Shown here: positions 2,638 to 62,829 of the stretch, one piece after another | Layout of the letters: the number at the start of each line of letters is the position of its first letter | Numbering within the stretch: position 1 is the first letter of the stretch | Translations under genes and position numbers: made by a program | The notes under the pieces: model-generated | What the model was told of the DNA's origin: nothing | Seen by the model: only the letters and a program-made list of their open reading frames with translations | Databases searched by the model: none | Source of the DNA: an uncultured Actinomycetes bacterium | GTDB lineage: Bacteria; Actinomycetota; Actinomycetes; Mycobacteriales; SCTD01 | DNA: 64,000 nt | Assembly: GCA_963784675.1 (NCBI GenBank) | Contig: CAWASE010000019.1 | Coordinates: 1,408-65,407, forward strand | Direction: 5' to 3'

Positions 2638-3938
2638 TGAGCACCCCCCGGGCCGACGGTCCGCTGCGCGTCGCCCTGCTCGGGTGCGGCACCGTCGGCG
2701 CCGAGGTCGTGCGGCTGCTGGCCACCTCGCGCGAGGATCTCGCCGCGCGCATCGGCGTCCCGCTCGAGCTGGTCGGCATCGCGGTGCGCCGTCCTGGTCG
2801 GGTGCGCGACCTGCCCGTCGACACCGACCTGTTCACCACCGACGCCGCTGCCCTGGTCGCGCGCGCCGACGTCGACCTCGTCGTCGAGGTGATCGGCGGC
2901 ATCGAACCGGCCCGCACGCTGATCCTGGCGGCGCTCGAAGCCGGCAAGAGCGTCGTCACCGCGAACAAGGCGCTGCTGGCCGAGGACGGCGCCACCCTGC
3001 ACGCGGCCGCGGCCAGGGCCGGCGCCGACCTCTACTACGAGGCCAGCGTCGCCGGCGCCATCCCGTTGCTGCGGCCGCTGCAGGAGTCGCTGGCCGGCGA
3101 CCACATCACCCGCGTCACCGGCATCGTCAACGGCACCACCAACTTCGTCCTGACCCGCATGGACGAGACCGGCGCGGGCTTCGCCGACGCGCTCGACGAG
3201 GCCACCGCGCTGGGCTACGCCGAGGCCGACCCGACCGCCGACGTCGAGGGCTTCGACGCCGCCGCCAAGACCGCCATCCTGGCCGGGCTGGCCTTCCACA
3301 CCCGCGTCGTCGCGGCCGACGTGCACCGCGAGGGCATCACCGAGGTCACCGCCGCCGACGTCGCCAGCGCCAAGGCGATGGGGTGCGTGGTGAAGCTGCT
3401 GGCCATCGCCGAGCGCGAGGGCGACGGCGTCAGCGTGCGCGTGCACCCGGCCATGATCCCGCGCACCCACCCGCTCGGCACCGTGCGCGAGGCCTACAAC
3501 GCCGTGTTCGTCGAGGCCGAGAGCGCCGGCCGGCTGATGTTCTACGGCCCCGGCGCCGGCGGCGCTCCGACCGCCAGCGCGGTGCTGGGCGACCTCGTCG
3601 CTGTGGCGCGCAACGCGCTGTCGGGGGCGCGCGGGGCCGGCGCGTCCGACTATGCCGAGCTGCGCGTGCGTCCCATGGGTGAGGTCGTCACGAGGTACCA
3701 CATCAGCCTCGACGTCGCCGACAAGGCCGGCGTGCTGATGGCGGTAGCCGGGGCGTTCTCCGACCATGACGTCTCGATCCGCACCGTCCGGCAGGAGGGG
3801 CACGGCGACGACGCGAGCCTGGTCGTGGTGACGCACACCGCCACCGACGCGGCGCTGTCGGCGGTCGTCGAGCAGCTGCGCGGGCTCGACAGCGTGCGCG
3901 CCGTGGCCTCGGTCATGCGGGTGGAGGGACAGGCGTGA
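2637..3938 (+). CDS. hom: homoserine dehydrogenase
   Basis: ATG 2637. N-terminal Rossmann start [25 protein letters not shown] motif, ACT-like C-terminus. 433 aa. Position between lysA and thrC. Confidence 0.9.
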
Positions 3939-7201: not shown

Positions 7202-7426
7202 CGGCAGCCCGCGAGAGGGTCGCTCTGCGTGTAGGCTGAGAGTTGCACCAGGAGCCCCACGAAGGGCCGGTGCTCGTTGCCGGGCCGCGTGACCCGAGAC
7301 CAGATCTGTGTCGACAGTCCGGTCCCGCGTCGGCGCGAGGCTCGTGCGCCGACCGGCCACTCGGCCGGATGCACCCTCACCGCCTCGCCGCACCCGCGGC
7401 CGGCGGCACCTCCAGGAGGACCGTCC

Positions 7427-9586
7427 TTGACCGACACCACCGACCTGCTGACGGCGTCTGCCGCGCAGGACGACCCCGCCGCTGCCGCCCCGAACACCCG
7501 TCGACGGGTCGCCGGCGGCGGTCTCGCTGCCAAGGTGCTGCCCGAGCTGCAGGCGATGGCCGGTGAGCTCGGCATCACCGGGGTGGCACGGCTGCGCAAG
7601 AGCCAGCTGATCGAGGCCATCCAGGCCAAGCAGAGCGGTGCGGGCGCCGCACCGAGCGCCACCGCCGCCGCTCCGAGCCCGCAGACCGGGGGACCCAGCC
7701 AAGAGCCGGCGACCCCTGAGCCGCAGGAGTCGTCGGGCGGCGCCCGACCGCCGCGCACCGCCCGCCGGGCCGCCTCCCGGCCCGCCGGCGAGCCCAGCGC
7801 CGCCCAGGGCACGTCCGCCCGGGGCAACGACGCCGTCGACAGCAACGAGTCTGCTCCGCGCGACGCGCCCCGTGAAGGCAGCGACTCCCGTGAAGGCAGC
7901 GACTCTCGTGACAGCAGCGACTCCCGCGACAGCGACGACGGCAGCAGCGAGCGCATCGACCGTGGCCGCGAGCGCTTCCTCGAGCGCGAGGCGCGACGGC
8001 AGGAGCGGCTGGCCGCGCAAGCTGCTGGCGACGCGGACGGTCCGGGCGACCGGGTCGGGCAGCGCCAGCAGCGCCTGCAGGGCGATCGACCCCAGAACGA
8101 CCGCGCGCAGAACGACCGCGGCCCGAACGACCGCGTGCAGAACGACCGCACGCAGAACGACCGCACGCAGAACGACCGCGGCCCGAACGACCGCACGCAG
8201 AACGACCGCGGCCCGAACGACCGCACGCAGAACGACCGCGGCCCGAACGACCGCGCGCAGCAGGACCGGCAGCAGGCAGACCGGCAGCAGAGCGACCGCG
8301 GCCCGACCGACGGCGGTCTGTCCCCGGCCGGCGACGACGACGAGTTCGGCAGCCGCCGGGGCCGCTTCCGCGAGCGCGGTCGGGGTCGCAGCCGAAACCG
8401 CCAGGACCGGTTCGGCAACGAGTCCGACCCCATCGTGGGCGACGACGACGTGCTGCTGCCGGTCGGCGGCATCCTGGACATCCTCGACAACTACGGCTTC
8501 GTCCGCACCTCCGGCTACCTGACCGGCCCCAACGACGTGTACGTCTCGCTGCAGCAGGTGCGCAAGTACGGCCTGCGGCGCGGGGACGCCGTCACCGGCG
8601 CCGTCCGGCAGCAGCGCGAGGGCGAGCGCAAGGACAAGTACAACGCCCTGGTCCGGCTCGACACCGTCAACGGCCTGGACCCGGAAGAGGCTAAGACCAG
8701 GCCCGACTTCACCAAGCTCACGCCGCTCTACCCGCAGGACCGTCTGCGGCTGGAGACCGAGCCGAACCTGCTCACCACGAGGGTCATCGACCTGGTGATG
8801 CCGGTCGGCAAGGGCCAGCGCGCGCTGATCGTCAGCCCGCCCAAGGCCGGCAAGACGATGGTGCTGCAGGCGATCGCCAACGCGATCACCCGCAACAACC
8901 CTGAGGTCCACCTCATGGTCGTGCTCGTCGACGAGCGGCCGGAAGAGGTCACGGACATGCAGCGGTCGGTGAAGGGCGAGGTCATCGCCTCCACCTTCGA
9001 CCGGCCGCCTGCCGACCACATCACCGTCGCCGAGCTGAGCATCGAGCGGGCCAAGCGGCTGGTCGAGCTGGGTCACGACGTCGTCGTGCTGCTGGACTCG
9101 ATCACCCGGCTCGGCCGCGCCTACAACCTCGGCGCCCCGGCGTCCGGACGCATCCTCACCGGCGGTGTCGACTCGGCAGCGCTGTACCCGCCCAAGCGCT
9201 TCCTCGGCGCCGCGCGCAACATCGAGAACGGCGGCTCGCTGACCATCTTCGCGACCGCCCTGGTCGAGACCGGCTCGGCCATGGACACCGTCATCTTCGA
9301 GGAGTTCAAGGGCACCGGCAACGCCGAGCTCAAGCTCGACCGGCGGCTCGCGGACAAGCGCATCTTCCCGGCGATCGACGTCGACGCCTCCGGCACCCGC
9401 AAGGAAGAGCTGCTGCTGGCACCCGAGGAGCTGCGCATCACCCTGCAGCTGCGACGGGTCCTGCACGCCCTGGACACCGGGGCCAGCCTGGAGCTGCTGC
9501 TGGACAAGATGAAGAAGACCCGGACCAACGTCGAGTTCCTCATGCAGATCCAGAAGACGACCGTCCCCGAGCCCGAAGCCAAGTAG
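7427..9586 (+). CDS. rho: transcription termination factor Rho with a long N-terminal insertion domain
   Basis: TTG 7427 with AGGAGG 7 nt upstream. Rho_N helices ([29 protein letters not shown]), a low-complexity insert, a CSD-like domain ([18 protein letters not shown]), Walker A PPKAGKT and Walker [11 protein letters not shown]. 719 aa. Confidence 0.93.
7871..7942 (+). repeat. in-frame 18-nt tandem repeat x4 inside rho ([24 protein letters not shown])
   Basis: Direct reading: cgtgaaggcagcgactcc, cgtgaaggcagcgactct, cgtgacagcagcgactcc, cgcgacagcgacgacggc. Confidence 0.9.
8084..8308 (+). repeat. in-frame 15-nt tandem repeat x15 inside rho (pentapeptide DRxxN), with a perfect 30-nt higher-order unit x3 at 8159-8248
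   Basis: Codons read [75 protein letters not shown]. The unit gaccgcacgcagaacgaccgcggcccgaac is repeated three times without mismatch. Confidence 0.95.
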
Positions 9587-51735: not shown

Positions 51736-53189
51736 CGCTTGGCGCGCAGGCCGGCCAGCTGTCCGGTGAAGATCGAGGTGGCGTTGCTGCCGTCGCCCCG
51801 CAGGCGGTTCATCGCCGCATGCTGGTCGTCGGTCATGGCGCCGCCGGCCTGGCACACGTTGCGCATCAGCTCTGACAGCGGGTCCTTGACGGTGGCTTTG
51901 GCCAGCCACGACGCGTCGATCGCCGCGGTGGTGGGCACCTTCTTCTTCTCGTCGAACTTCAGGATGTCGATGCCGGAGTGGTAGTCGATGGCCCAGACGT
52001 AGTCGGTGCCGGGGATCCAGTAGGCCTGCGAGGTGGAGCCGCGCACCGGCTGGTAGAAGCCGACCTGGCGGATCTTGCCGGTGCTTCGGGTCGACCTTCA
52101 GGAAGCGCGTGCCGTGCTCGTACCAGGCGGCGGCGACCAGGACCGAGCCGTCTTGGCCTTCTTCTCGGTGAACCAGTGGCCCGAGCAGCCCAGGCGCGTT
52201 CACGGCCGGGTCGCCGTCGGTGTAGGTGCCGCTGACCGGACGCAGGACGTCGAGCTGCTTCATCGGGACGCCCTTGTCGAAGCCGGCCATCGACCAGGTG
52301 CTGAACGCGCCGGCCCCGGTCTCGCAGGTGCCGGTGAAGTTCGTCTCGCCCTTGCCCAGCAGCAGCTCGCCGTCGCGCAGCGGCAGGCCCGCGCTCTCGC
52401 CGCCGGCCTTGCGGGGCTTGTACCGGTCGGCTCGGGGCGGATGTTGTTGTGCTGGTAGGCGGTGTTCTTGGTGATCTCGCCGGTGGTGAGCACCTTGAGC
52501 TTGAGCGGGTTGCCCTTGACCTGCTCGAAGACCACCAGCGGCGTCGGTGTCGGCGATCCAGACGCCGGCGTCGTCCTGGTGCAGGGCGTGGCCGCTGCTC
52601 GGCGCCGGTCAGCGCGCGCCAGGACTGCTCCTTCGGCAGCTCCACCGGGTTGCTGCGGTCGCGGATGTCGTAGGTGTTGCCCTCCGAGCCGAACAGGTAG
52701 TTGCACGGCCTGGTCGGCGCAGACCACGGTGTGGTCGCCGCCGAGCGGGATCGTGCCCTTGAGCACGCGGCAGCGTCGGGTCGCTGGTGTCGACGACGTG
52801 CAGGTAGAGCGTGCCCTCGAACTCGGTGAGGATCGCGGTCTTGCCGTCGGCGGAGACGGCGATGTCCTCGTTCTCCCAGTTGTAGATCGGGCAGGTGGCC
52901 GAGCAGCAGCGGCTGGCCGGGTCGGTGGCGTCGTAGATCGACAGCCCGGCCGCGCCGCTGACGTAGGCCCGGCGCTGCTTGCCGACCTTGACGATCTTCA
53001 TCGACACCGACGGCGCCGTCCAGCGGGACGGTGCCCGACGTGCGTCACGTTGTCGGAGATGAAGTCCGCGCCGGTGGCCGGCACGACCGGGCTGACGGGG
53101 ACGGTCGGCAGCACGCCTGCGGTCGCGATCCCCACGGACGCGAGCAGGACGGCGGCGCTGGCGAGCGCGAGGGCGGGACGACGGCGCAT
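51732..53189 (-). pseudogene. secreted beta-propeller protein with LVIVD-like repeats, broken by at least 7 frame switches
   Basis: ATG 53189. Signal peptide MRRRPALALASAAVLLASVGIATAG. Conserved-looking segments (KIVKVGKQRRAYVSGAAGLSIYDATDPA; LKGTIPLGGDHTVVCADQA; CNYLFGSEGNTYDIRDRSNPVELPKEQSW; PLVVFEQVKGNPLKLKVLTTGEITKNTAYQHNNIRP; ADRYKPRKAGGESAGLPLRDGELLLGKGETNFTGTCETGAGAFSTWSMAGFDKGVPMKQLDV; KIRQVGFYQPVRGSTSQAYWIPGTDYVWAIDYHSGIDILKFDEKK) alternate among all three frames. Breaks lie near 53035, 52765, 52705, 52595, 52545, 52435 and 52083. Family call is tentative. Confidence 0.55.
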
Positions 53190-53275
53190 GCGGGACGGCT
53201 CCAAGGAGGTCGAGGTTGTGCCCTTGTTCGACGCCGCGCCGCGCGGTTCCTGCCGCGCCTGGGAAGATCTGCGGC

Positions 53276-53746
53276 ATGCCGAAACGGAGCGCCGGACTGC
53301 TGCTCTACCGGCAGGTGCCGCACCTGGAGGTGCTGCTGGCCCATCCCGGTGGCCCGTTGCACGCCCGCAAGGACGTCTGGGGCGTGCCCAAGGGCGAGTA
53401 CGGCGACGACGAGCCCCCTCGCGACGCCGCCTACCGCGAGTGGTCCGAGGAGATCGGCCACCTGCCGCCGGCCGGCGAACCGCTCGACCTCGGTGAGATC
53501 GTCCAGAAGGGCGGCAAGCGGGTGCGGGCGTGGGCCTTGGCCGGTGACCTGGACGTCGCCACGGTCGTGAGCAACACCTTCGCGATGCGGTGGCAGGGCC
53601 GGCTCCAGGAGTTCCCGGAGATCGACCGCGCGCAGTGGTTCGACCTCGCCACGGCGCGCGGCAAGATCCTCCCGGCGCAGGAGCCGTTCCTGGACCGGCT
53701 CGGGGAGGTGCTGGCGATCCGGGACAGGGGCGGCCCTGGTGGCTGA
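53276..53746 (+). CDS. Nudix hydrolase
   Basis: ATG 53276. Intact Nudix box G-X5-E-X7-REUXEEXG read as GEYGDDEPPRDAAYREWSEEIG. 156 aa. Confidence 0.85.
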   Translation: MPKRSAGLLLYRQVPHLEVLLAHPGGPLHARKDVWGVPKGEYGDDEPPRDAAYREWSEEIGHLPPAGEPLDLGEIVQKGGKRVRAWALAGDLDVATVVSNTFAMRWQGRLQEFPEIDRAQWFDLATARGKILPAQEPFLDRLGEVLAIRDRGGPGG

Positions 53747-53779
53747 CACCGAGACCGGAGGGTCACCCGGCGGACCGCC

Positions 53780-54213
53780 TCAGTGACCCATGCCGTCGGG
53801 GCCGGGCTCGACCAGCTCGACCAGCACGCCCCCGCTGCTCTTGGGATGGATGAAGTTGACCCGGCTGCCGGCCGTGCCCGTTCTTCGGCTCGTCGTAGAG
53901 CAGCCGCATGCCCTGGCCGCGCAGGTGCGGCGCTGACCTCGTCGAGGTCGTCGACGCGGTAGGCCATCTGCTGGATGCCCGGGCCGTTCTTGTCCAGGAA
54001 CTTGCCGATGGTGCGTGTCCGGGCGACAGCGGCGACAGCAGCTGCACGAACGAGCCGGAGTCGCCGACCTCCATCATCGCCTCGCGAACGCCCTGCTCCT
54101 CGTTGACCTCCGCGTGCACGCAGCGCATGCCGTAAGCCGGTCTCGTAGATCGCGATGGCGGCGTCGAGGTCGGCGACGGCGATGCCGACGTGGTCGATGC
54201 GGGTGATCTTCAC
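53780..54213 (-). pseudogene. methylmalonyl-CoA epimerase (VOC/glyoxalase fold), broken by at least 4 frame switches
   Basis: GTG 54213 (GGAG 9 nt upstream). Segments VKITRIDHVGIAVADLDAAIAIYETG / MRCVHAEVNEEQGVREAMMEVGDSGSFVQLLSPLSP / TIGKFLDKNGPGIQQMAYRVDDLDEVSA / HLRGQGMRLLYDEPKNG / AGSRVNFIHPKSSGGVLVELVEPGPDGMGH lie in different frames. Breaks near 54133, 54017, 53929 and 53878. The length of 434 nt is not a multiple of 3. Confidence 0.75.
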
Positions 54214-54299
54214 GGGTGGGCTCCGTCGGGCGCCGACGGGGTGAGCGGGACGGTGCTCGTATCGTCGCAGGCACGCACCCATCGACCCTGGAGGACCCC

Positions 54300-55521
54300 G
54301 TGAGCAGCTCCGAGAACCCGTCCGTCATCGTCGCCGGCGCCCGCACGCCCATCGGCAAGCTCGCCGGGCGCCTTCAAGGACCTCACCGCCATGGACCTCG
54401 GCGGGGTCGCCATCAAGGGCGCGCTCGAGCGCTCCGGGATCACCGGCGACCAGGTCGACTACGTGATCATGGGCCACGTGCTGCAGGCCGGCCAGGGCCA
54501 GATCACGGCCCGTCAGGCCGCGGTCAAGGGCGGCATCGGCATGGACGTCCCGGCGCTGACCATCAACAAGGTCTGCCTGTCCGGCCTGGACGCGATCGCG
54601 CTGGCCGACCAGCTGATCCGCGCCGGTGAGGTCGAGGTCGTCGTCGCCGGTGGCATGGAGTCGATGACCAACGCGCCGTACCTGCTGCCCAAGGCCGCGC
54701 CAGGGCTACCGCTACGGCAACGCCGAGATCCTCGACGCGACCTTCCACGACGGCCTGTTCGACGCCTTCGACCGGGTGCCGATGGGCGAGGGCACCGAGC
54801 GCCACGACGGCCGAACTTCCCGGCCATCACCCGCGAGGAGCAGGACGAGTTCGCCGCCCGCAGCCACGAGCTCGCCGCCGCCGCGATCAAGGACGGCCGC
54901 TTCGCCGACGAGATCGTCCCGGTCGCGATCCCGCAGCGCAAGGGCGACCCGGTCGTCGTCACCGAGGACGAGGGCGTGCGCCCCGGCACCACCGCCGAGT
55001 CGCTCGGCAAGCTCGCGCCCGGCGTTCACCAAGGACGGCACGATCAGCGCCGGCAACGCCTCGCAGATCTCCGACGGCGCCGCCGCGGTCGTCGTCATGA
55101 GCAGGGCCAAGGCCGAGGCGCTCGGGCTGACCTGGCTCGCCGAGATCGGCGCGCACGGCATCGTCGCCGGCCCCGACAACTCCCTGCAGGAGCAGCCGGC
55201 CAACGCCATCAAGAAGGCGCTCGCGCAAGGACGGGCCTGACCGTCGACGACGTCGACCTGTTCGAGCTCAACGAGGCGTTCGCCGCCGTCGGGATCGCGT
55301 CCACCGCGCGCGCTCGGCGTCGACCCGGACAAGGTCAACGTCAACGGCGGCGCGATCGCGCTCGGCCACCCGATCGGCGCCTCCGGTGCCCGCGTCGTGC
55401 TGCACCTGGCGCACGAGCTCAAGCGCCGCGGCGGCGGCCTGGGTGCGGCCGCGCTGTGCGGCGGCGGCGGACAGGGCGACGCCCTGCTGCTGCGCGTGCC
55501 CGGCCGAGCCCGCACAGCTGA
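54300..55521 (+). pseudogene. acetyl-CoA acetyltransferase (thiolase), broken by at least 6 frame switches
   Basis: GGAGGA 5 nt upstream of GTG 54300. Segments VIVAGARTPIGKLAG / KDLTAMDLGGVAIKGAL...INKVCLSGLDAIALA...[16 protein letters not shown] / [18 protein letters not shown] / [36 protein letters not shown] / [27 protein letters not shown] / [18 protein letters not shown] / [28 protein letters not shown]...[12 protein letters not shown] alternate between frames. Breaks near 54367, 54699, 54810, 55021, 55231 and 55309. The 3' end is uncertain: the last frame has no stop before meaB. Confidence 0.8.
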
Positions 55522-55554: not shown

Positions 55555-56533
55555 GTGCTCGACGTCCCGACGCTGGTCGAGCAGGCCTGCGGCGGCGACC
55601 GCACCCACCGGCCGCGCCGTCGCCCGGCTGATCAGCCTGGTCGAGGACGCCAGCCCGGCGCTGCGCGAGGTCATGGCGCTGCTGGCGCCGCGGGCAGGTC
55701 ACGCGCGCGTGGTCGGCCTGACCGGTTCGCCCGGCGTCGGCAAGAGCACCTCCACCAACGCGCTGGTCGCGGCCTACCGTCGACGCGGCCTGCGGGTCGG
55801 CGTGCTCGCGGTCGACCCGAGCTCGCCGTTCTCCGGCGGCGCGCTGCTCGGCGACCGCGTCCGGATGCAGGACCACGCCCTGGACGAGGGCGTGTTCATC
55901 CGCTCGATGGCCTCCCGCGGGCACCTCGGCGGGCTATCCTGGGCGACCCCGCAGGCGCTGCGGGTGCTGTCCGCAGCCGGCTGCGACGTCGTGCTCGTCG
56001 AGACCGTGGGTGTAGGTCAGGCGGAAGTCGAGATCGCCTCGCTCGCGGACACCACGCTGGTGCTGCTGGCACCCGGCATGGGCGACGGGATCCAGGCGGC
56101 CAAGGCCGGGATCCTGGAGGTCGCCGACGTCTTCGTGGTCAACAAGGCCGACCGCGACGGCGCCGACACCGTCGTGCGCGACCTGCGCTACATGCTCAGC
56201 CTGGGAGGCACCCGCAAGGGAGCAGACAGCACGGACGACGGTTGGCGGGTGCCGATCCTCAAGACGATCGCGGCGAAGGGCGAGGGCGCCGACGACGTGG
56301 TCGACGCCATCGAGCGGCACGGCGCCTGGCTGGCCGAGACCGGCCGCCTCGCCCAGCGCCGCACCGACCGGGCCGCCGACGAGGTCGAGGCGATCGCGCT
56401 GACGACGCTGCGCGAGCGCCTCGGCGACCTGCGCACGGGCACGTCGCTGCGCGACCTGGCAGCCCGCGTGGCCGCGGGCGAGCTCGACCCCTACGCGGCC
56501 GCCGACGACCTGGTGGCCGCCGTCACCGGGTGA
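55555..56533 (+). CDS. meaB: MeaB/ArgK-type G-protein chaperone of B12 mutases (one frameshift near 55605 in the N-terminal helices)
   Basis: GTG 55555 gives [17 protein letters not shown]. The conserved continuation [17 protein letters not shown]...[12 protein letters not shown] (Walker A)...VVNKADRDG (NKxD) is in the next frame, with the junction at the accc-acc run 55603-55609. If the break is real, the first in-frame ATG is 55673. Confidence 0.8.
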
Positions 56534-56565
56534 GCGCCCCCGTGCCGGCAGCCACCATGCGACTC

Positions 56566-56683
56566 GCGGCTGCCGCCGCGGTCACTTCTTGGCGGCTGCC
56601 GCCGCAGTCACTTCCCTCGCGGCTGCCGCCGCGGTCACTTCCCTCGCGGCTGCCGCCGCGGTCACTTCTTTGCGGCTGCCGCC
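56566..56683. repeat. 4.5 copies of a 26/27-bp tandem repeat between convergent meaB and a small ORF
   Basis: Units gcggctgccgccgcggtcacttc(ttg|cctc|tttg) at 56566-56591 (26 nt), 56592-56618 (27), 56619-56645 (27) and 56646-56671 (26), plus a partial unit 56672-56683. Each unit contains the mini-hairpin gcggc-tgcc-gccgc. cggcagcc at 56546-56553 can pair with ggctgccg of any unit. Confidence 0.95.
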
Positions 56684-56781
56684 GAGACGGCCGTGCCCTG
56701 CGTCGGCGTCTGACCGCTGACCTTCTTGTTCTTGTCCGCCTTGGGCTTCTTGGCGGCGCGGCCGCCCTTGTCCTTGCTCAT
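56662..56781 (-). CDS. 39-aa lysine-rich small protein, unknown function
   Basis: ATG 56781 with GAGGAG 6 nt upstream. MSKDKGGRAAKKPKADKNKKVSGQTPTQGTAVSAAAAKK. The last codons and the stop lie inside the tandem repeat. Coding status is unproven. Confidence 0.45.
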   Translation of the reverse strand: MSKDKGGRAAKKPKADKNKKVSGQTPTQGTAVSAAAAKK

Positions 56782-56957
56782 GGCGTGCTCCTCGGGCTCG
56801 CGGAGCGACCGGCGGCGCCGGTTGTGCCCCGTCCGCACTCTCGCACGCCCCTTGGTCATCCGGCGAGCCCCCGCCGCCGACGGCAGCGCCCGCAGGCCGC
56901 AGCCCGGCGACGGTGCGAGACTTCAGCCATGGTCAAGAAGACGGGACGCGAGCCGTC

Positions 56958-57392
56958 GTGCTGAGCCGGCCCGCGCCGGACCCCGCGGCGCTGGACCTGC
57001 AGCGCCACCCTGAGGGCGGCTGGTTCCGCGAGACCTGGCGCGCCCCCGGCGTGGTCGAGACGCCGCACGGGCCGCGCTCACCTGCGACGTCGATCCACTA
57101 CCTGCTCGAGGCAGGACAGTCCTCGCGCTGGCACCGGGTCCGGTCCGGCGAGCTGTGGCTCTGGCAGGGCGGCGGCTCGCTGCTGCTGTACCTCGGCGGT
57201 ACCGAGCAGACCCCCGTGCCCGACCGCACGGTCGTGGTCGGACCCGACGGCGTCCTGCAGCATCTCGTCGAGCCGGGGCAGTGGCAGGCCGCGCAGCCGA
57301 TGGACACCGCGGTCCTGCTCGCCTGCGTGGTGGCGCCCGGCTTCGAGTTCGAGGACTTCGAGCTCGTCGACCAGCGTCCGGACGTCCCGTGA
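56958..57392 (+). CDS. cupin-fold protein (DUF985-like)
   Basis: LQRHPEGGWFRETWR ... TSIHYLL ... SRWHRVRSGELWLWQGG ... VAPGFEFEDFEL pattern. Start is GTG 56958 or GTG 56913. Confidence 0.65.
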   Translation: MLSRPAPDPAALDLQRHPEGGWFRETWRAPGVVETPHGPRSPATSIHYLLEAGQSSRWHRVRSGELWLWQGGGSLLLYLGGTEQTPVPDRTVVVGPDGVLQHLVEPGQWQAAQPMDTAVLLACVVAPGFEFEDFELVDQRPDVP

Positions 57393-57673
57393 TGACGGCC
57401 CTGCGCCGGGTGGCGCTCGCGGAGTCGATCTCGTTCGTCGTGCTGCTGCTGCTGGGCTCGGTCCTGAGCCGCGTGTCGAGCGTCAACCTGCTGCCGGTGC
57501 TCGGACCGTTGCACGGGGTGCTGTTCCTCGCGCTGGTCGGCCTGGTGCTGCTGCGTCGGACGGCGATGGGTTGGTCCTGGTGGTTCACCGCGGTCATGCT
57601 CACCATCGGCTCGCCGGGCGCCCACTTCGCCGTCCACGCCACGCCGGACGTCCTTCCCGCCCAGGCGGTCTGA
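57389..57673 (+). CDS. small membrane protein (DUF3817-like)
   Basis: GTG 57389/ATG 57392 overlaps the cupin stop. About 3 TM helices (AESISFVVLLLLGSVL, LGPLHGVLFLALVGLVLL, WWFTAVMLTIGSPG). 94 aa. Confidence 0.6.
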   Translation: MMTALRRVALAESISFVVLLLLGSVLSRVSSVNLLPVLGPLHGVLFLALVGLVLLRRTAMGWSWWFTAVMLTIGSPGAHFAVHATPDVLPAQAV

Positions 57674-57997: not shown

Positions 57998-58530
57998 ATG
58001 CGCGTCAGCTTGAAGGTCGACGGTGTCACCTACACCGATGAGGTCGAACCCCGAACCCTGCTCACCCACCACCTGCGCGACGGCCTCGGCCGGGTCGGCA
58101 CCCCGATCGGTTGCGACACCCGCAACTGCGGCAGCTGCACGATCCGGCTCGACGGCGACAGCGTGAAGTCCTGCTCGGTGCTGGCGGTGCAGGCCGACGG
58201 CACGCGAGATCACCACCATCCAGGGCCTGGCCGACGGTGAGGGCGACGGCCCGCCGGCTGGCACCCGGTGCAGCGCGCCTTCCAGGAGCACCACGGCCTG
58301 CAGTGCGGCTACTGCACCCCGGGATGATCATGGCGACCGTGGACCTGCTCTCGCGCAACGCCAGCCCCACCGAGGACGAGGTGCGCCACGGGCTGGAGGG
58401 CAACCTCTGCCGCTGCACCGGTTATCAGAACATCGTCAAGGCCGTCCTCTCCGCCGCCTCCGAGCTGCGCGGAGACGGCCCGATCGCCGGTTCCTTCCAG
58501 GACGCCGACGCCGAGAAGGTGGACGCATGA
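57998..58530 (+). pseudogene. [2Fe-2S] small subunit of a CoxSLM/xanthine-dehydrogenase-family molybdoenzyme, 3 frame switches
   Basis: GGAGAGG upstream of ATG 57998. [17 protein letters not shown] (cluster I), then [13 protein letters not shown], then [21 protein letters not shown] and MIMATVDLL...[13 protein letters not shown] (cluster II) lie in shifted frames. Breaks near 58205 and 58250, and at GGG 58321-58323 where ccg-ggg-atg would be needed. Confidence 0.8.
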
Positions 58531-61049
58531 CCGAGCAGCTGGATGCCGGCCTGGTCGCCGGCGAGATCGCCGAGCACCCGGACGCGCTGAGCAAGCCCTA
58601 CGCGGGCGGTGAGCTGGGGCGCGGACGCCGTCGCAAGGAGGACGCCAAGCTCGTCACCGGCCAGACCAACTGGACCGACAACATCACCCTGCCGGGCCTG
58701 CTGCACCTGACCGTGCTGCGCAGCCCGATGGCCCACGCGAAGGTCGTCTCGGTCGACGTGAGCGCAGCCCTGGAGATGCCCGGCGTCATCGCCGCCTACA
58801 GCGGCAAGGACCTCGCCGACGTCATGGGCGGCTCGATGCCGTGCGCGTGGCCGGTCACCCCCGACATGGTCAGCCCGGCGCACACCCCGCTGGCCATCGA
58901 CGAGGTGCGCTACGTCGGCGACGGTGTCGCCGTCGTCATCGCCCGCAGCCGCTACGAGGCCGCCGATGCGCTGGAGGCCGTCGCGGTCGAGTACGAGCAG
59001 CTGCCGGCCGTCGTCGACATGGAGGCGGCGCTCAAAGACGGCTCTCCGCTGGTGCACAGCGACAAGGGCACCAACAAGTGCTTCCTGTTCGACTTCCCCG
59101 GCGCCGGAGCCGACTACGACGAGACCGTCGCGGCTGCCGGCGACGACGCGGTGGTGGTGAAGCGCCGCTTCCGGCAGCAGCGGCTATCCCGACCCCGATG
59201 GAGCCCCGCGGTGTCGTCGTCGCACCCATCGCGGCTGCCGACGAGTTCACCGTCTACTCCGCCACGCAGATCCCGCACATCCTGCGGGTGATGCTCGCGC
59301 TCACCACCGGCATCGGCGAGCACAAGCTGCGCGTCATCGCGCCCGACGTCGGCGGCGGCTTCGGCGCCAAGCTCAACGTCTACGCCGAGGAGGTGCTCTG
59401 CCTGGTCGTCGCCCGCAAGCTCGGCCGACCCGATCAAGTGGACCGAGACGCGCAGCGAGAACTACCAGGCCACCACGCACGGCCGCGACCAGATCCAGGA
59501 CATCACCATCGCGGCCCGCAAGGACGGCACGCTGCTGGGCCTGAAGGTCGAGCTGATGGCCGACATGGGCGCCTACCTGCAGCTCATCACCCCCGGCGTG
59601 CCGGTGCTGGGTGCGTTCATGTTCCCGGCGATCTACAAGATGGACGCCTACCGCTTCCTGTGCACCGGCGTCTTCACGACCAAGACGCCCACCGACGCCT
59701 ATCGCGGCGCCGGCCGACCCGAGGCGACCTACGCCATCGAGCGGATCATGGACGAGCTCGCGGCCGAGCTCGGACGCGACCCGATGGAGCTGCGCAAGCA
59801 GAACTGGATCAGGCACGAGGAGTTCCCGTACACGATGATCGCGGGGCTCACCTACGACAGGGGCAACTACGAGGCGGCCACCGAGAAGGCCGAGCAGATG
59901 TTCGACCTCGCCGGGCTGCGGGCCGAGCAGCAGCAGCGCCGTGAGCGCAAGGACCCGATCCAGCTCGGCATCGGCATCTCGACGTTCACCGAGATGTGCG
60001 GGCTGGCACCCTCGCGGGTGCTCGGCTCGCTGTCCTACGGCGCCGGCGGCTGGGAGTCGGCGTCGGTGCGGATGCTGCCGACCGGCAAGGTCGAGGTCGT
60101 GTCCGGCGCCACGCCGCACGGGCAGGGCCACCACACCGCCTGGAGCCAGATCGTCGCCGACTCGCTCGGGGTGCCGTTCGAGGACGTCCTGCTGGTCGCC
60201 GGTGACACTCAGAGCAGCCCCAAGGGCATGGACACCTACGGCTCGCGGTCGCTGGTCGTCGGCGGCGTCGCGATCCACAAGGCCACCGGCAAGGTCATCG
60301 AGAAGGCCAAGCGGATCGCCGCGCACCTGCTGGAGGCCAGCGAGGACGACGTCGAGTTCGGTGGCGGGACGTTCAGCGTGAAGGGCTCGCCGGAGGCCTC
60401 GCTGACCATCCAGGAGGTGGCGCTGGCGACCTTCGCGGCGCACAACCTGCCCGACGGCATGGAGCCGAGCCTGGACAGCGACTACGTCTACGACCCGGAG
60501 AACTTCTCCTACCCGCACGGCACCCACCTGTGCGCGGTCGAGATCGACACCGAGACCGGCTTCACGAAGATCCGCAAGTACGTCTGCGTCGACGACATCG
60601 GCAAGATCGTCAATCCGGTCATCGTCGAGGGCCAGGTGCACGGCGGGCTCGCGCAGGGCATCGCGCAGGCGCTGTACGAGGAGGCCGTCTACGACGCCGA
60701 GGGCAACCTGACCACCGGCTCGCTGGTCGACTACCTCGTGCCGGCCGCGCCCGACCTGCCGCACTTCGACACCGGCCGCACCGAGACGCCCGCGACCAGC
60801 AACCCGTTGGGCGTCAAGGGTGTCGGCGAGGCCGGCACGATCGCCTCGACCCCGGCGGTCATGAACGCCGTCGTCGACGCGCTGCGCCCCTACGGCGTGA
60901 ACAACCTGGACATGCCCGCGACGCCGGAGCGGGTCTGGCGGGCCATCCACGACGACGGCACGCTGCGCGCGACCTCGGGCACCGTCGCCTACGGGGGCGC
61001 GTCCACCGCGACCACCGCCGGCACCACGAGCAACGGAGCGTCCGCATGA
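58527..61049 (+). pseudogene. molybdopterin-binding large subunit, form-II CoxL-like, 2 frame switches in the first 910 nt
   Basis: ATG 58527 overlaps the coxS stop. Breaks near 59186 (cggct-atcc where ctg-atc is expected) and at CCC 59429-59431. The middle segment IPTPMEPRGVVVAP...VIAPDVGGGFGAKL and the last 1.6 kb are in other frames. Active-site loop PTDAYRGAGRPEA (the AYRGAGR form-II signature, not AYXCSFR). Confidence 0.8.
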
Positions 61050-61906
61050 TCCCCGCCGCGTTCGACTACGTCGCGCCCACCACGCTCGCCGAGGCGATCA
61101 CCGCGCTCGGCGAGGCCGGCGAGGACGCCAAGATCCTCGCCGGCGGGCAGAGCCTGCTGCCGGTGCTGCGGCTACGGCTGTCGTTCCCGACCGTGCTGGT
61201 CGACCTGTCCAAGGTCGCCGAGCTCAAGGGGGTCCGCGAGGACGGTGACAGCCTGGTCATCGGCGCGATGACCCGGCACAGCGACGTCATGGAGGACCCG
61301 CTCGTGCGCCGGCACGCCGCGCTGCTGTCTGCCGCCACCGCCACCGTCGCCGATCCGGCGGTGCGCCACCGCGGCACCTTCGGCGGGGCGCTGGCCCATG
61401 CCGACCCGGCCGGTGACCTCGCCGCCGTCGCCCTGGCCCTGGACGCCGAGCTGGTCGCCGAGGGGCCCGGCGGACGTCGGTCCATCGCGGCGGCCGACTT
61501 CTTCCAGGACTATCTGGAGACGGCGCTGTCCCCGGACGAGATCCTCGCCGAGATCCGGTTGCCGAAGCTCGAAGGCAGCTGGGGGGTGCGGTACGAGAAG
61601 TTCAACCGCGTCGCGCAGGCGTGGGCGATCGTCGGGGTGGCCGCAGCGGTGCGGCTCGACGGCGGCAGCATCGCCGAGGCCAGGATCGGACTCACCAACA
61701 TGGGCTCGACCCCCCTGCGCGCCCGCGACGTGGAGCAGGCGCTCGTCGGCGCGGCGGACCGGGCCGCCGTGACGGCCGCGGTCGCGACCGTGGCCGAGGG
61801 CACGAGCCCGCCCGCGGACCTCGGCGGCCAGCCCGACTACCGCCGGCACCTGGCCAGGGTGCTCACCGGACGAGCCGTCGTCGCCGCGGCCGGGTTCGGC
61901 AGCTGA
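61046..61906 (+). CDS. FAD-binding medium subunit (CoxM-like)
   Basis: ATG 61046 overlaps the large-subunit stop. AKILAGGQSLLPVLRLR and HRGTFGGALAHADPAGD motifs. 286 aa. Confidence 0.88.
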   Translation: MIPAAFDYVAPTTLAEAITALGEAGEDAKILAGGQSLLPVLRLRLSFPTVLVDLSKVAELKGVREDGDSLVIGAMTRHSDVMEDPLVRRHAALLSAATATVADPAVRHRGTFGGALAHADPAGDLAAVALALDAELVAEGPGGRRSIAAADFFQDYLETALSPDEILAEIRLPKLEGSWGVRYEKFNRVAQAWAIVGVAAAVRLDGGSIAEARIGLTNMGSTPLRARDVEQALVGAADRAAVTAAVATVAEGTSPPADLGGQPDYRRHLARVLTGRAVVAAAGFGS

Positions 61907-61947
61907 CGGCCGGTCCGCCCGTCCGGCGGGGTCTGCTCCCTGCAGGG

Positions 61948-62829
61948 GTGCAGGATCCCGCCGGGCTGCGAGGGCTGCTGGCCGACGCCGGCTATCTCGC
62001 CGACGAGGGGGTCGCCACCGCCGCCTATCTCGCCCTGGCCCTGCCGCGCCCCCTGTTCCTGGAGGGCGAGGCCGGCGTCGGCAAGACCGCGCTGGCGCAC
62101 GCCCTCGCGGCGGTCGTCGGGGCCGACCTGCTCCGGTTGCAGTGCTACGAGGGCATCGACGCCAGCCAGGCCCTGTACGACTGGGACTTTCCGCGGCAGC
62201 TGCTGCACCTGCGTGCGGCCGAGGCGGCCGGGGGCGGTGACGCGCAGGCGCTCGAGAGCGAGGTGTACAGCCGACGCTTCCTGCTGGCCCGTCCGTTGCT
62301 GGCAGCGCTCGAGACCACCCCGGCGGTGCTGCTCGTCGACGAGGTCGACCGTGCCGACGACGAGTTCGAGGCCTTCTTGCTGGAGGTGCTCTCGGACTAC
62401 ACCGTCACCGTGCCCGAGCTCGGCACCATCCGTGCCGAGGTCGCACCGATCGTCGTGGTGACGAGCAACCGCACCCGCGAGGTGCACGATGCGCTCAAGC
62501 GCCGCTGTCTCTACCACTGGGTGGAGCACCCGGACTTCGAGCGCGAGGTCGCGATCGTGCGCCAGCGCGTCCCTGAGGCCGCGGCCGTCCTGGTCGCGCA
62601 GGTGGCCCGGGCGGTGGCGGCGTTGCGCGCGGAAGACCTGCTCAAGCCACCGGGCGTGGCCGAGACCATCGACTGGACGCAGGCGTTGGTCGCCCTCGGC
62701 GCCGAGCAGCTCGACGCCGGGCTCGCGACCGCCACGCTCGGGGCGGTGCTGAAGTACCGCGAGGACCAGCAGCACGCCCAGCGCCTGGACGTGCAGCAGA
62801 TGATCGCCACCGCCGTCCTGGGTCGATGA
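61948..62829 (+). CDS. MoxR/CoxD-like AAA+ ATPase
   Basis: Start GTG 61948 is tentative. Walker A GEAGVGKTALA, Walker B LLVDEVDRADDEF and VVTSNRTREVHDALKRRC. About 293 aa. Confidence 0.85.
   Translation: MQDPAGLRGLLADAGYLADEGVATAAYLALALPRPLFLEGEAGVGKTALAHALAAVVGADLLRLQCYEGIDASQALYDWDFPRQLLHLRAAEAAGGGDAQALESEVYSRRFLLARPLLAALETTPAVLLVDEVDRADDEFEAFLLEVLSDYTVTVPELGTIRAEVAPIVVVTSNRTREVHDALKRRCLYHWVEHPDFEREVAIVRQRVPEAAAVLVAQVARAVAALRAEDLLKPPGVAETIDWTQALVALGAEQLDAGLATATLGAVLKYREDQQHAQRLDVQQMIATAVLGR

Follow-up and report, generated by a model that had tools for sequence, protein, structure and literature searches.

An array of tandem repeats with units of 26 and 27 nt lies between two convergent genes in a stretch of 64,000 nt from contig CAWASE010000019.1 of an uncultured Actinomycetes bacterium. 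We refer to this whole stretch as the window; its G+C content is 72.9%. On the minus strand a small gene encodes a lysine-rich microprotein of 39 amino acids (aa), and on the plus strand the gene meaB runs towards it, leaving a spacer of 128 bp between the two stop codons. In this head-to-tail arrangement the small open reading frame (ORF, minus strand, 56781..56662) itself supplies the first copy, with its 3' end. The units are numbered from this end, U0 to U4, and the features of the locus are as follows.

56662..56781, minus strand: small gene for the 39-aa lysine-rich microprotein MSKDKGGRAAKKPKADKNKKVSGQTPTQGTAVSAAAAKK, supported by homologues, stop codon included
56788..56793, minus strand: Shine-Dalgarno sequence GAGGAG, 6 nt upstream of the ATG, kept as GGAG in an alignment of 21 loci
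56661..56686, minus strand: U0, 26 nt, formed by the final codons of the gene itself (S-A-A-A-A-K-K) and its TGA, with the ORF end ...TCG GCG GCA GCC GCA AAG AAG TGA c
56634..56660, minus strand: U1, 27 nt, 'RE type', cgcggcggcagccgcgagggaagtgac, ending ...GCC GCG AGG GAA GTG AC
56607..56633, minus strand: U2, 27 nt, cgcggcggcagccgcgagggaagtgac, the same 27-mer as U1
56581..56606, minus strand: U3, 26 nt, 'KK type', tgcggcggcagccgccaagaagtgac, ending ...GCC GCC AAG AAG TGA c
56563..56580, minus strand: U4, a partial unit at the end of the array that passes into unique sequence
55555..56533, plus strand: meaB, coding for a G3E GTPase and convergent with the small gene, matching Pfam MeaB (7.7e-92) and TIGR00750 (2e-103), stop codon at 56531-56533

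Tandem Repeats Finder places the array at 56563-56684, with a period of 27, 4.6 copies, 89% matches and a score of 191. An earlier reading of the letters alone (the sequence-only reading) had proposed that a 26/27-bp repeat copies the last codons and the stop of the ORF, and this is confirmed by the repeat finder and by alignment of the units. The lengths of 26, 27, 27 and 26 nt for U0 to U3 are likewise as proposed, subject to the single-base accuracy of the assembly, and the Shine-Dalgarno sequence (56793-56788) and the stop of meaB lie where that reading had put them. The 23-mer unit GCGGCTGCCGCCGCGGTCACTTC has four matches at up to three mismatches compared with none in 100 shuffles, and no further copy at that threshold anywhere in the 64-kb window. 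A GC-rich core of 12 nt, GGCGGCAGCCGC, is present in all five units, and in U0 it provides the codons for Ala-Ala-Ala-Ala (GCG GCA GCC GC). The identity of U1 and U2 indicates a duplication that, judged by the sequence, was probably recent.

Tandem repeats of 10-100 bp, such as those by which Mycobacterium tuberculosis and M. leprae are typed, are known as bacterial minisatellites or variable-number tandem repeat (VNTR) loci. In its structure the present locus is a bacterial minisatellite. It shares with VNTR loci a head-to-tail arrangement, a unit of tens of bp, a position at the end of a gene, and a GC-rich and hairpin-forming sequence. As in those loci the units are almost the same, a few diagnostic substitutions apart, and the array presumably arises and changes through slippage or unequal recombination. 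It is unlike them in that the unit visibly copies the last codons and the stop of the adjacent gene, and the fit is one of structure, variability aside. The sequence-only reading had compared the array with the interspersed repetitive units of mycobacteria (MIRUs). There is a likeness, in that the array, too, is a short repeat found between actinobacterial genes, with a stop and a brief reading frame in its units. However, MIRUs are dispersed and apparently mobile, they insert at the start codons of co-oriented genes, and translation of the ORF inside a MIRU is coupled, at a spacing of -4 nt, to that of the co-oriented gene downstream (PMC12548453). Our array occurs at a single locus in the 64-kb window, its unit of 26/27 bp is much shorter, and it lies between the convergent stops at 56533 and 56662 and derives from the end of the local gene. 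Unit size, single locus and gene orientation rule out identity with a MIRU, and the proposed resemblance is not supported.

The same reading had singled out the small ORF as worth attention, and searches for homologues bear this out. Among 5.8 billion proteins there are 27 homologues, nearly all of 39-48 aa, with E-values down to 3e-14 and identities to the microprotein from 100% to 62%; two further gene calls among the homologues have N-terminal extensions. A profile search of 1.84 billion representatives gave 40 clusters or representatives at 50% identity. Relatives are encoded at 35 loci of species-representative genomes, hosted by Frankiales, Mycobacteriales, other metagenome-assembled genomes (MAGs) of Actinomycetota, Aquipuribacter and Klenkia, and there are a few weaker matches in MAGs of Acetobacteraceae. 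The family amounts to about 60 homologues of 38-48 aa. Its near-invariant N-terminal block is MSKDKGGR(A/E)AKKPKAxxN(I/K)KV(S/T)GQTP, with 17 invariant columns. The protein of the window has the properties by which we recognize the family, i.e. a length of about 40 aa, the block KxKGGRxxKKPKAxxNxKxxGQTP at the N-terminus and a C-terminal end rich in Lys or Arg. Conservation is lowest in the tail, which has Lys or Arg at its end, and other small changes of tail length that resemble slippage are seen as AKGNTAKGKK in P0013 and GSGSGSG in P0048. Counted in the sequence, 36 of the 39 codons of the gene have G or C in the third position. The exact 39-aa protein was found once, on a single contig. 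Profile searches with the peptide found nothing in Pfam, NCBIfam or the PDB, and a literature search found no match to the motifs of the microprotein.

On the basis of these comparisons the 39-aa ORF is a genuine conserved gene. It belongs to an unannotated microprotein family, mainly of Actinomycetota, that has no model in gene callers or curated family databases. An ORF of 65 aa extended upstream to an ATG at 56859 (additional region 56782-56859, minus strand) was rejected, as the homologues begin at MSKDK. Since they do so, and since the Shine-Dalgarno sequence precedes the ATG at 56781, that ATG is taken to be the real start. Two proteins of the family, P0034 (63 aa) and P0042 (84 aa), have long, unrelated Arg/Pro-rich C-terminal extensions, and these look like frameshifted or read-through gene calls rather than genuine isoforms.

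We compared the array with 42 related loci (L001-L038 and L040-L044; L039 was left out as a chance match). In none of the 42 is the end of the gene reiterated after the stop. The gene order of the window, in which a cupin/DUF3817 gene is divergent from the small gene and meaB is convergent with it, was found in three contigs from two lineages. The locus L001, which is the syntenic relative closest to the window, has 80-90% DNA identity to it, and its orthologue is also 39 aa, ending ...GCC GCC AAG AAG TAG with the stop at the position of that of U0. The nucleotide homology between L001 and the window (90%) breaks off exactly at the stop codon, beyond which L001 has a spacer of 430 bp that is unrelated to that of the window. 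Because the homology stops at the KK-stop of L001, at the same position, the KK-stop end is ancestral and the downstream copies are derived. In L043 and L044 the stops of the small gene and meaB are just 3 bp apart, as TGAcccTCA (L043 1621-1635; L044 988-1002), and the L043 orthologue has 41 aa. There the two transcripts must either overlap or each stop within the gene of the other. The spacers of L043/L044, the window and L001 (3, 128 and 430 bp) show that the region turns over fast and that no conserved element is required within it.

Attempts to trace the repeat elsewhere gave little. A 22-mer spanning the unit junction had one match in 241 million metagenome records, in L039. There a gene that by eye is rpmG ends ...AAG TGA CCGCGGCGGCAGCCGCGGTC (9140-9176, minus strand), which contains the same 22-mer, and the sequence forms a perfect 9-bp hairpin that overlaps the stop, so that the junction 22-mer serves elsewhere as a post-stop hairpin. 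We rejected L039 as a relative, since it is an unrelated hairpin after rpmG that matches by chance. Searches with the peptide and with the repeat unit had both been suggested by the sequence-only reading; that with the peptide led to the conserved family, while that with the unit gave no relative and this one chance 22-mer match. A weak resemblance between the unit and the 3' end of meaB (gccgccgtcacc and gccgccgcggtcac) was put down to Ala/Val codons and the derivation from meaB rejected. A conserved neighbourhood across the family was also rejected, as all-against-all clustering gave only synteny among close relatives.

Other tandem repeats are present in these genomes. In L001 the equivalent spacer between the small gene and meaB has a different, degenerate repeat of 25 bp in 3.3 copies (GGTTGACGGCGGGGTCGACCACGTC, 3231-3313). 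In the window a 15/30-bp tandem repeat of about 14 and 7 copies lies at 8093-8315 (plus strand) inside the ORF 7277-9586, where it codes for pentapeptides (Q/P)NDR(A/T/G/V) in an N-terminal insertion. By eye this ORF encodes transcription termination factor Rho, and the gene just upstream homoserine kinase. Given the L001 repeat and the other repeats of the window, it appears that such arrays arise readily in these genomes.

The reading frames across the array determine what changes of copy number would do to the protein. Translation in the frame of the ORF gives ...AAAAKK*PRRQPRGK*PRRQPRGK*, with two more in-frame TGA codons at a spacing of 27 nt, and translation in the -1 frame gives VTAAAAAREVTAAAAAREVTAAAAAKK, i.e. 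VTAAAAARE twice and then VTAAAAAKK. Both the extra stops and this tail-like -1 frame had been described by the sequence-only reading. The TGA of U1 falls in the ORF frame, and because of its 1-nt insertion the homologous coding phase of U1 is open; U3 codes for VTAAAAAKK* in the -1 frame. Within this frame there is one further ORF.

56582..56665, minus strand: GTG-started ORF of 27 codons in the -1 frame, VTAAAAARE twice plus VTAAAAAKK

It is probably not a gene, as judged from the sequence. It has no Shine-Dalgarno sequence and no homologue with such a tail, and it is confined to this lineage; being without homologues and a by-product of an Ala-codon-rich near-palindrome, it was rejected. An ORF of 43 aa on the plus strand (56589-56720) was rejected in the same way, as it has no homologues and is a by-product of the near-palindrome.

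We simulated all 20 core-to-core misalignments between units. In 17 of these the 39-aa product is left as it is; since every unit has its own stop, most changes of copy number are silent for the protein. The three events that alter the product are all deletions involving U0, giving 57 aa (U0 with U1), 48 aa (U0 with U2) and 50 aa (U0 with U4). The products of 57 and 48 aa are in-frame and end in the native KK-stop.

The explanation that we favor, and consider fairly likely, is that a minisatellite of recent date, confined to this lineage and probably neutral, has grown out of the 3' end of the conserved microprotein gene, its stop codon and an adjoining hairpin. The hairpin in question lies at the distal end of the array.

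56559..56585, minus strand: strongest single hairpin on folding, GUGACCGCGGC-GGCA-GCCGCG(A)GUCGC, with the core GGCGGCAGCCGC at its center

The 5' arm of this structure includes the TGA of U3, and the model makes it a candidate for the original hairpin after the stop codon. A GC-rich, hairpin-forming core that is directly repeated at a spacing of 26 nt is a classic substrate for slipped-strand mispairing. The core in the alanine codons of the tail would recur 26 nt downstream within the stop-codon hairpin GUGACCGCGGC-GGCA-GCCGCG-A-GUCGC, and the array would have arisen when replication slipped, or recombination was unequal, between these two direct repeats, a process aided by the hairpin. First to be duplicated would have been a segment made up of tail codons and stop together with the hairpin's 5' half. 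One copy would then have gained a nucleotide, converting AAG AAG TGA into AGG GAA GTG A and giving the RE type, and a second, recent duplication of this copy would have produced the identical U1 and U2. The array would have been tolerated, with the first stop ahead of everything else; because that stop lies in U0 the protein would stay at 39 aa whatever happens downstream. Its effect would then merely be a longer 3' untranslated spacer separating the small gene from meaB, with some weak hairpins added. Most likely it has no selected function.

There are observations that weigh against neutrality, and these concern the folding of the RNA and the open frame. The whole region is more stable than shuffled sequence, with z = -4.7 for the minus strand and -3.9 for the plus strand, compared with values from +0.5 to -1.9 at five other gene junctions in the window, four of them between convergent genes. 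This difference leaves room for a structural role. A consensus scan finds two overlapping terminator-like sites on the plus strand at 56644-56663, each a hairpin with a T-rich tail. Finally, the open phase of U1 to U3 ends in a native-like KK-stop, which is what a switchable extension of the protein would need. The first two observations would fit a hairpin array under selection, and the third a switch of the C-terminus.

If the hairpins were selected, the array might work in both directions as a terminator poor in U-tracts, or as a stabilizer of RNA 3' ends, for the small gene and meaB. Intrinsic terminator hairpins that are poor in U-tracts have been described in high-GC Actinobacteria. The array is like intrinsic terminators in having GC-rich stem-loops right after two convergent stops, with the stop included in the 5' arm of the terminal hairpin. 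The 40-nt segment that contains this hairpin folds at -23.3 kcal/mol (z = -2.0), and a second structure lies next to it on the side of meaB.

56511..56557, plus strand: imperfect long hairpin around the meaB stop (56531-56533), from folding

The 3' arm of the latter (56546-56557) can also pair with unit cores. The sequence-only reading had proposed both hairpins in the units and pairing of an upstream segment with them, and the folds agree, with 56546-56558 paired to unit cores. Pyrimidine-rich tails (UCACUUCUU/UCACUUCCCU) come after the hairpins on the plus strand. On the small-gene strand, however, the stem is followed not by a U-tract but by the purine-rich AGGGAAGUGAC. Each unit has a GC stem of 5-6 bp only, so that the internal stems are truncated, and they are no better than shuffled sequence (z = +0.6 to -1.1). 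The resemblance to the U-tract-poor actinobacterial terminators is thus confined to the distal end of the array. A search of Rfam with the locus and the whole window gave only a sub-threshold match to isrG (E = 0.79; 12.9 bits, where the gathering score is 100).

The syntenic relatives manage without the array. In L043/L044 the spacer has 3 bp, and that of L001 is unrelated; the bidirectional terminator suggested in the sequence-only reading is thus not supported as a required element. The other five junctions in the window have no unusual folding, and we rejected the idea of a general terminator habit of this genome on that ground. We therefore regard a selected hairpin array as unlikely. The only strong structure, by the folding models, is the terminal hairpin together with the stem proximal to meaB, and this is the likeliest candidate for an element that defines or stabilizes 3' ends.

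A switch of the C-terminus was implied by the sequence-only reading, in which the repeat was coupled to the end of the small protein. The array would then be a contingency device that toggles the microprotein between its 39-aa form and forms of 48 or 57 aa with (REVTAAAAA)n KK tails. These might be reached by unequal crossover of U0 with U1 or U2, or by -1 ribosomal slippage at A-AAG, either of which would fuse the ORF to the RE-type units. The core has the same codon phase in U0 and in the open frame of U1 to U3, the simulated deletions between U0 and U1 or U2 give the in-frame products noted above, the -1 frame offers a tail with the native ending, and a hairpin begins 7 nt after the A-AAG of U0 in the fold. 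But the phase compatibility is expected from descent by duplication alone. The sequence GCA AAG AAG UGA of U0 offers a single A-AAG and, read directly, no slippery heptamer of the form X XXY YYZ. A (VTAAAAARE)n tail is absent from the approximately 65 proteins of the family that were compared, the tail is unconserved, and the relatives are without the sequence altogether, with reiteration at none of the 42 loci. The coupling to the C-terminus is not, then, one that selection appears to maintain.

Classical simple-sequence contingency loci have units of 1-9 bp in a coding region or promoter, and most changes switch expression. The present array resembles them in that it overlaps the 3' end of a coding region and that the loss of some units would alter the length of the protein. 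It differs in that the first stop precedes the array and only 3 of the 20 possible events alter the protein, the other 17 being silent. A device for toggling the C-terminus is very improbable on this evidence, and the specific version in which recombination drives a stop-buffered switch between 39 aa and 48/57 aa is, if anything, more so. We know of no description of minisatellite-based, stop-buffered phase variation for bacterial small proteins. If the extension were made, a peptide spanning AAAAREVTAAAAA would mark it. Were either reading true, i.e. a switch of the tail or termination of both transcripts, the locus would serve as a compact, naturally occurring model of regulation by a minisatellite; nothing we have found supports such regulation here.

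The single-base details on which the frames depend, i.e. 26 as against 27 nt, hinge on the accuracy of the assembly, since there are frame-disrupted genes 1-5 kb away. The thiolase gene (acetyl-CoA acetyltransferase, 54250-55520, plus strand) has at least six frameshifts while its amino-acid sequence is still well conserved, and the segments that match Pfam Thiolase_N and Thiolase_C are not in one frame. An extra G or C within a run of G or C accounts for several of the disruptions. This suggests local errors in the consensus or a very recent pseudogene. The frame of meaB is broken once near 55,600, such that its N-terminus (55555-55650) is in a different frame from the remainder. A coxS-like [2Fe-2S] subunit is split between frames, with Fer2 at 57998-58240 and Fer2_2 at 58111-58530 (plus strand). 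When the window was segmented by frame, about 20 switches that have no stop close by appeared at 51.8-55.6 kb, compared with a clean stretch at 1-51.7 kb; clusters of such switches lie at 51790-54260 (minus strand) and at 57998-58530 and 59186-62000 (plus strand).

With so many disrupted genes nearby, the copy number or the unit lengths might be partly an artefact of assembly, and the fine frame relations of 26/27/27/26 not real. Yet both flanks of the locus have coding sequence free of frame breaks, at 55,609-56,524 (meaB to its stop) and at 56,954-57,654 (cupin/DUF3817), the latter starting about 170 bp beyond the start of the small gene. The stop in U0 agrees with that of the 39-aa orthologue, each unit length occurs twice, and the units differ by substitutions besides the indel, unlike errors of consensus. 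A whole array is not a typical consensus error either, and its existence is not in doubt. We consider an artefact in the unit lengths or copy number to be rather improbable, though less so than a switch of the C-terminus.

Upstream of the small gene there is a conserved leader element.

56801..56831, minus strand: conserved leader with potential for a two-tier hairpin, CGGGGC..CCGGC(GCC)GCCGG..GCUCCG, from the 21-locus alignment

Its sequence, CGGGGCAGGACCGGCG(Y)CGCCGGAGGCCCCG, lies about 20 nt upstream of the Shine-Dalgarno sequence, and it is found at about 2450-2485 in L005, L011, L013, L014, L022 and others. Over the 21 loci, two of the eight predicted pairs show a compensatory change (C-G to U-A in L008, L010 and L012). 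The hairpin is predicted in single-sequence folds, with z-scores that are unremarkable against the GC-rich background; because of this we report the leader only as conserved in sequence with limited covariation. It has no match in Rfam. It may act as a structure in the RNA or as a palindromic operator. In many relatives a second conserved box, cGTG(G/C/A)GACAGTG(G/A)CCGGACCC, occurs about 60-70 nt upstream of the leader hairpin. We see it in L005, L007, L011, L013-L015, L022 and L023; neither the window nor L001 has an evident copy. This box may be a promoter element.

For the biology of these bacteria the locus provides a clear case in which a tandem duplication that includes a stop codon expands at the 3' end of a gene and leaves the protein unchanged. 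It also indicates a rapid turnover of the spacer that separates two convergent genes, with lengths of 3, 128 and 430 bp in three syntenic lineages. The conserved microprotein family and its leader are more promising leads than the array itself.

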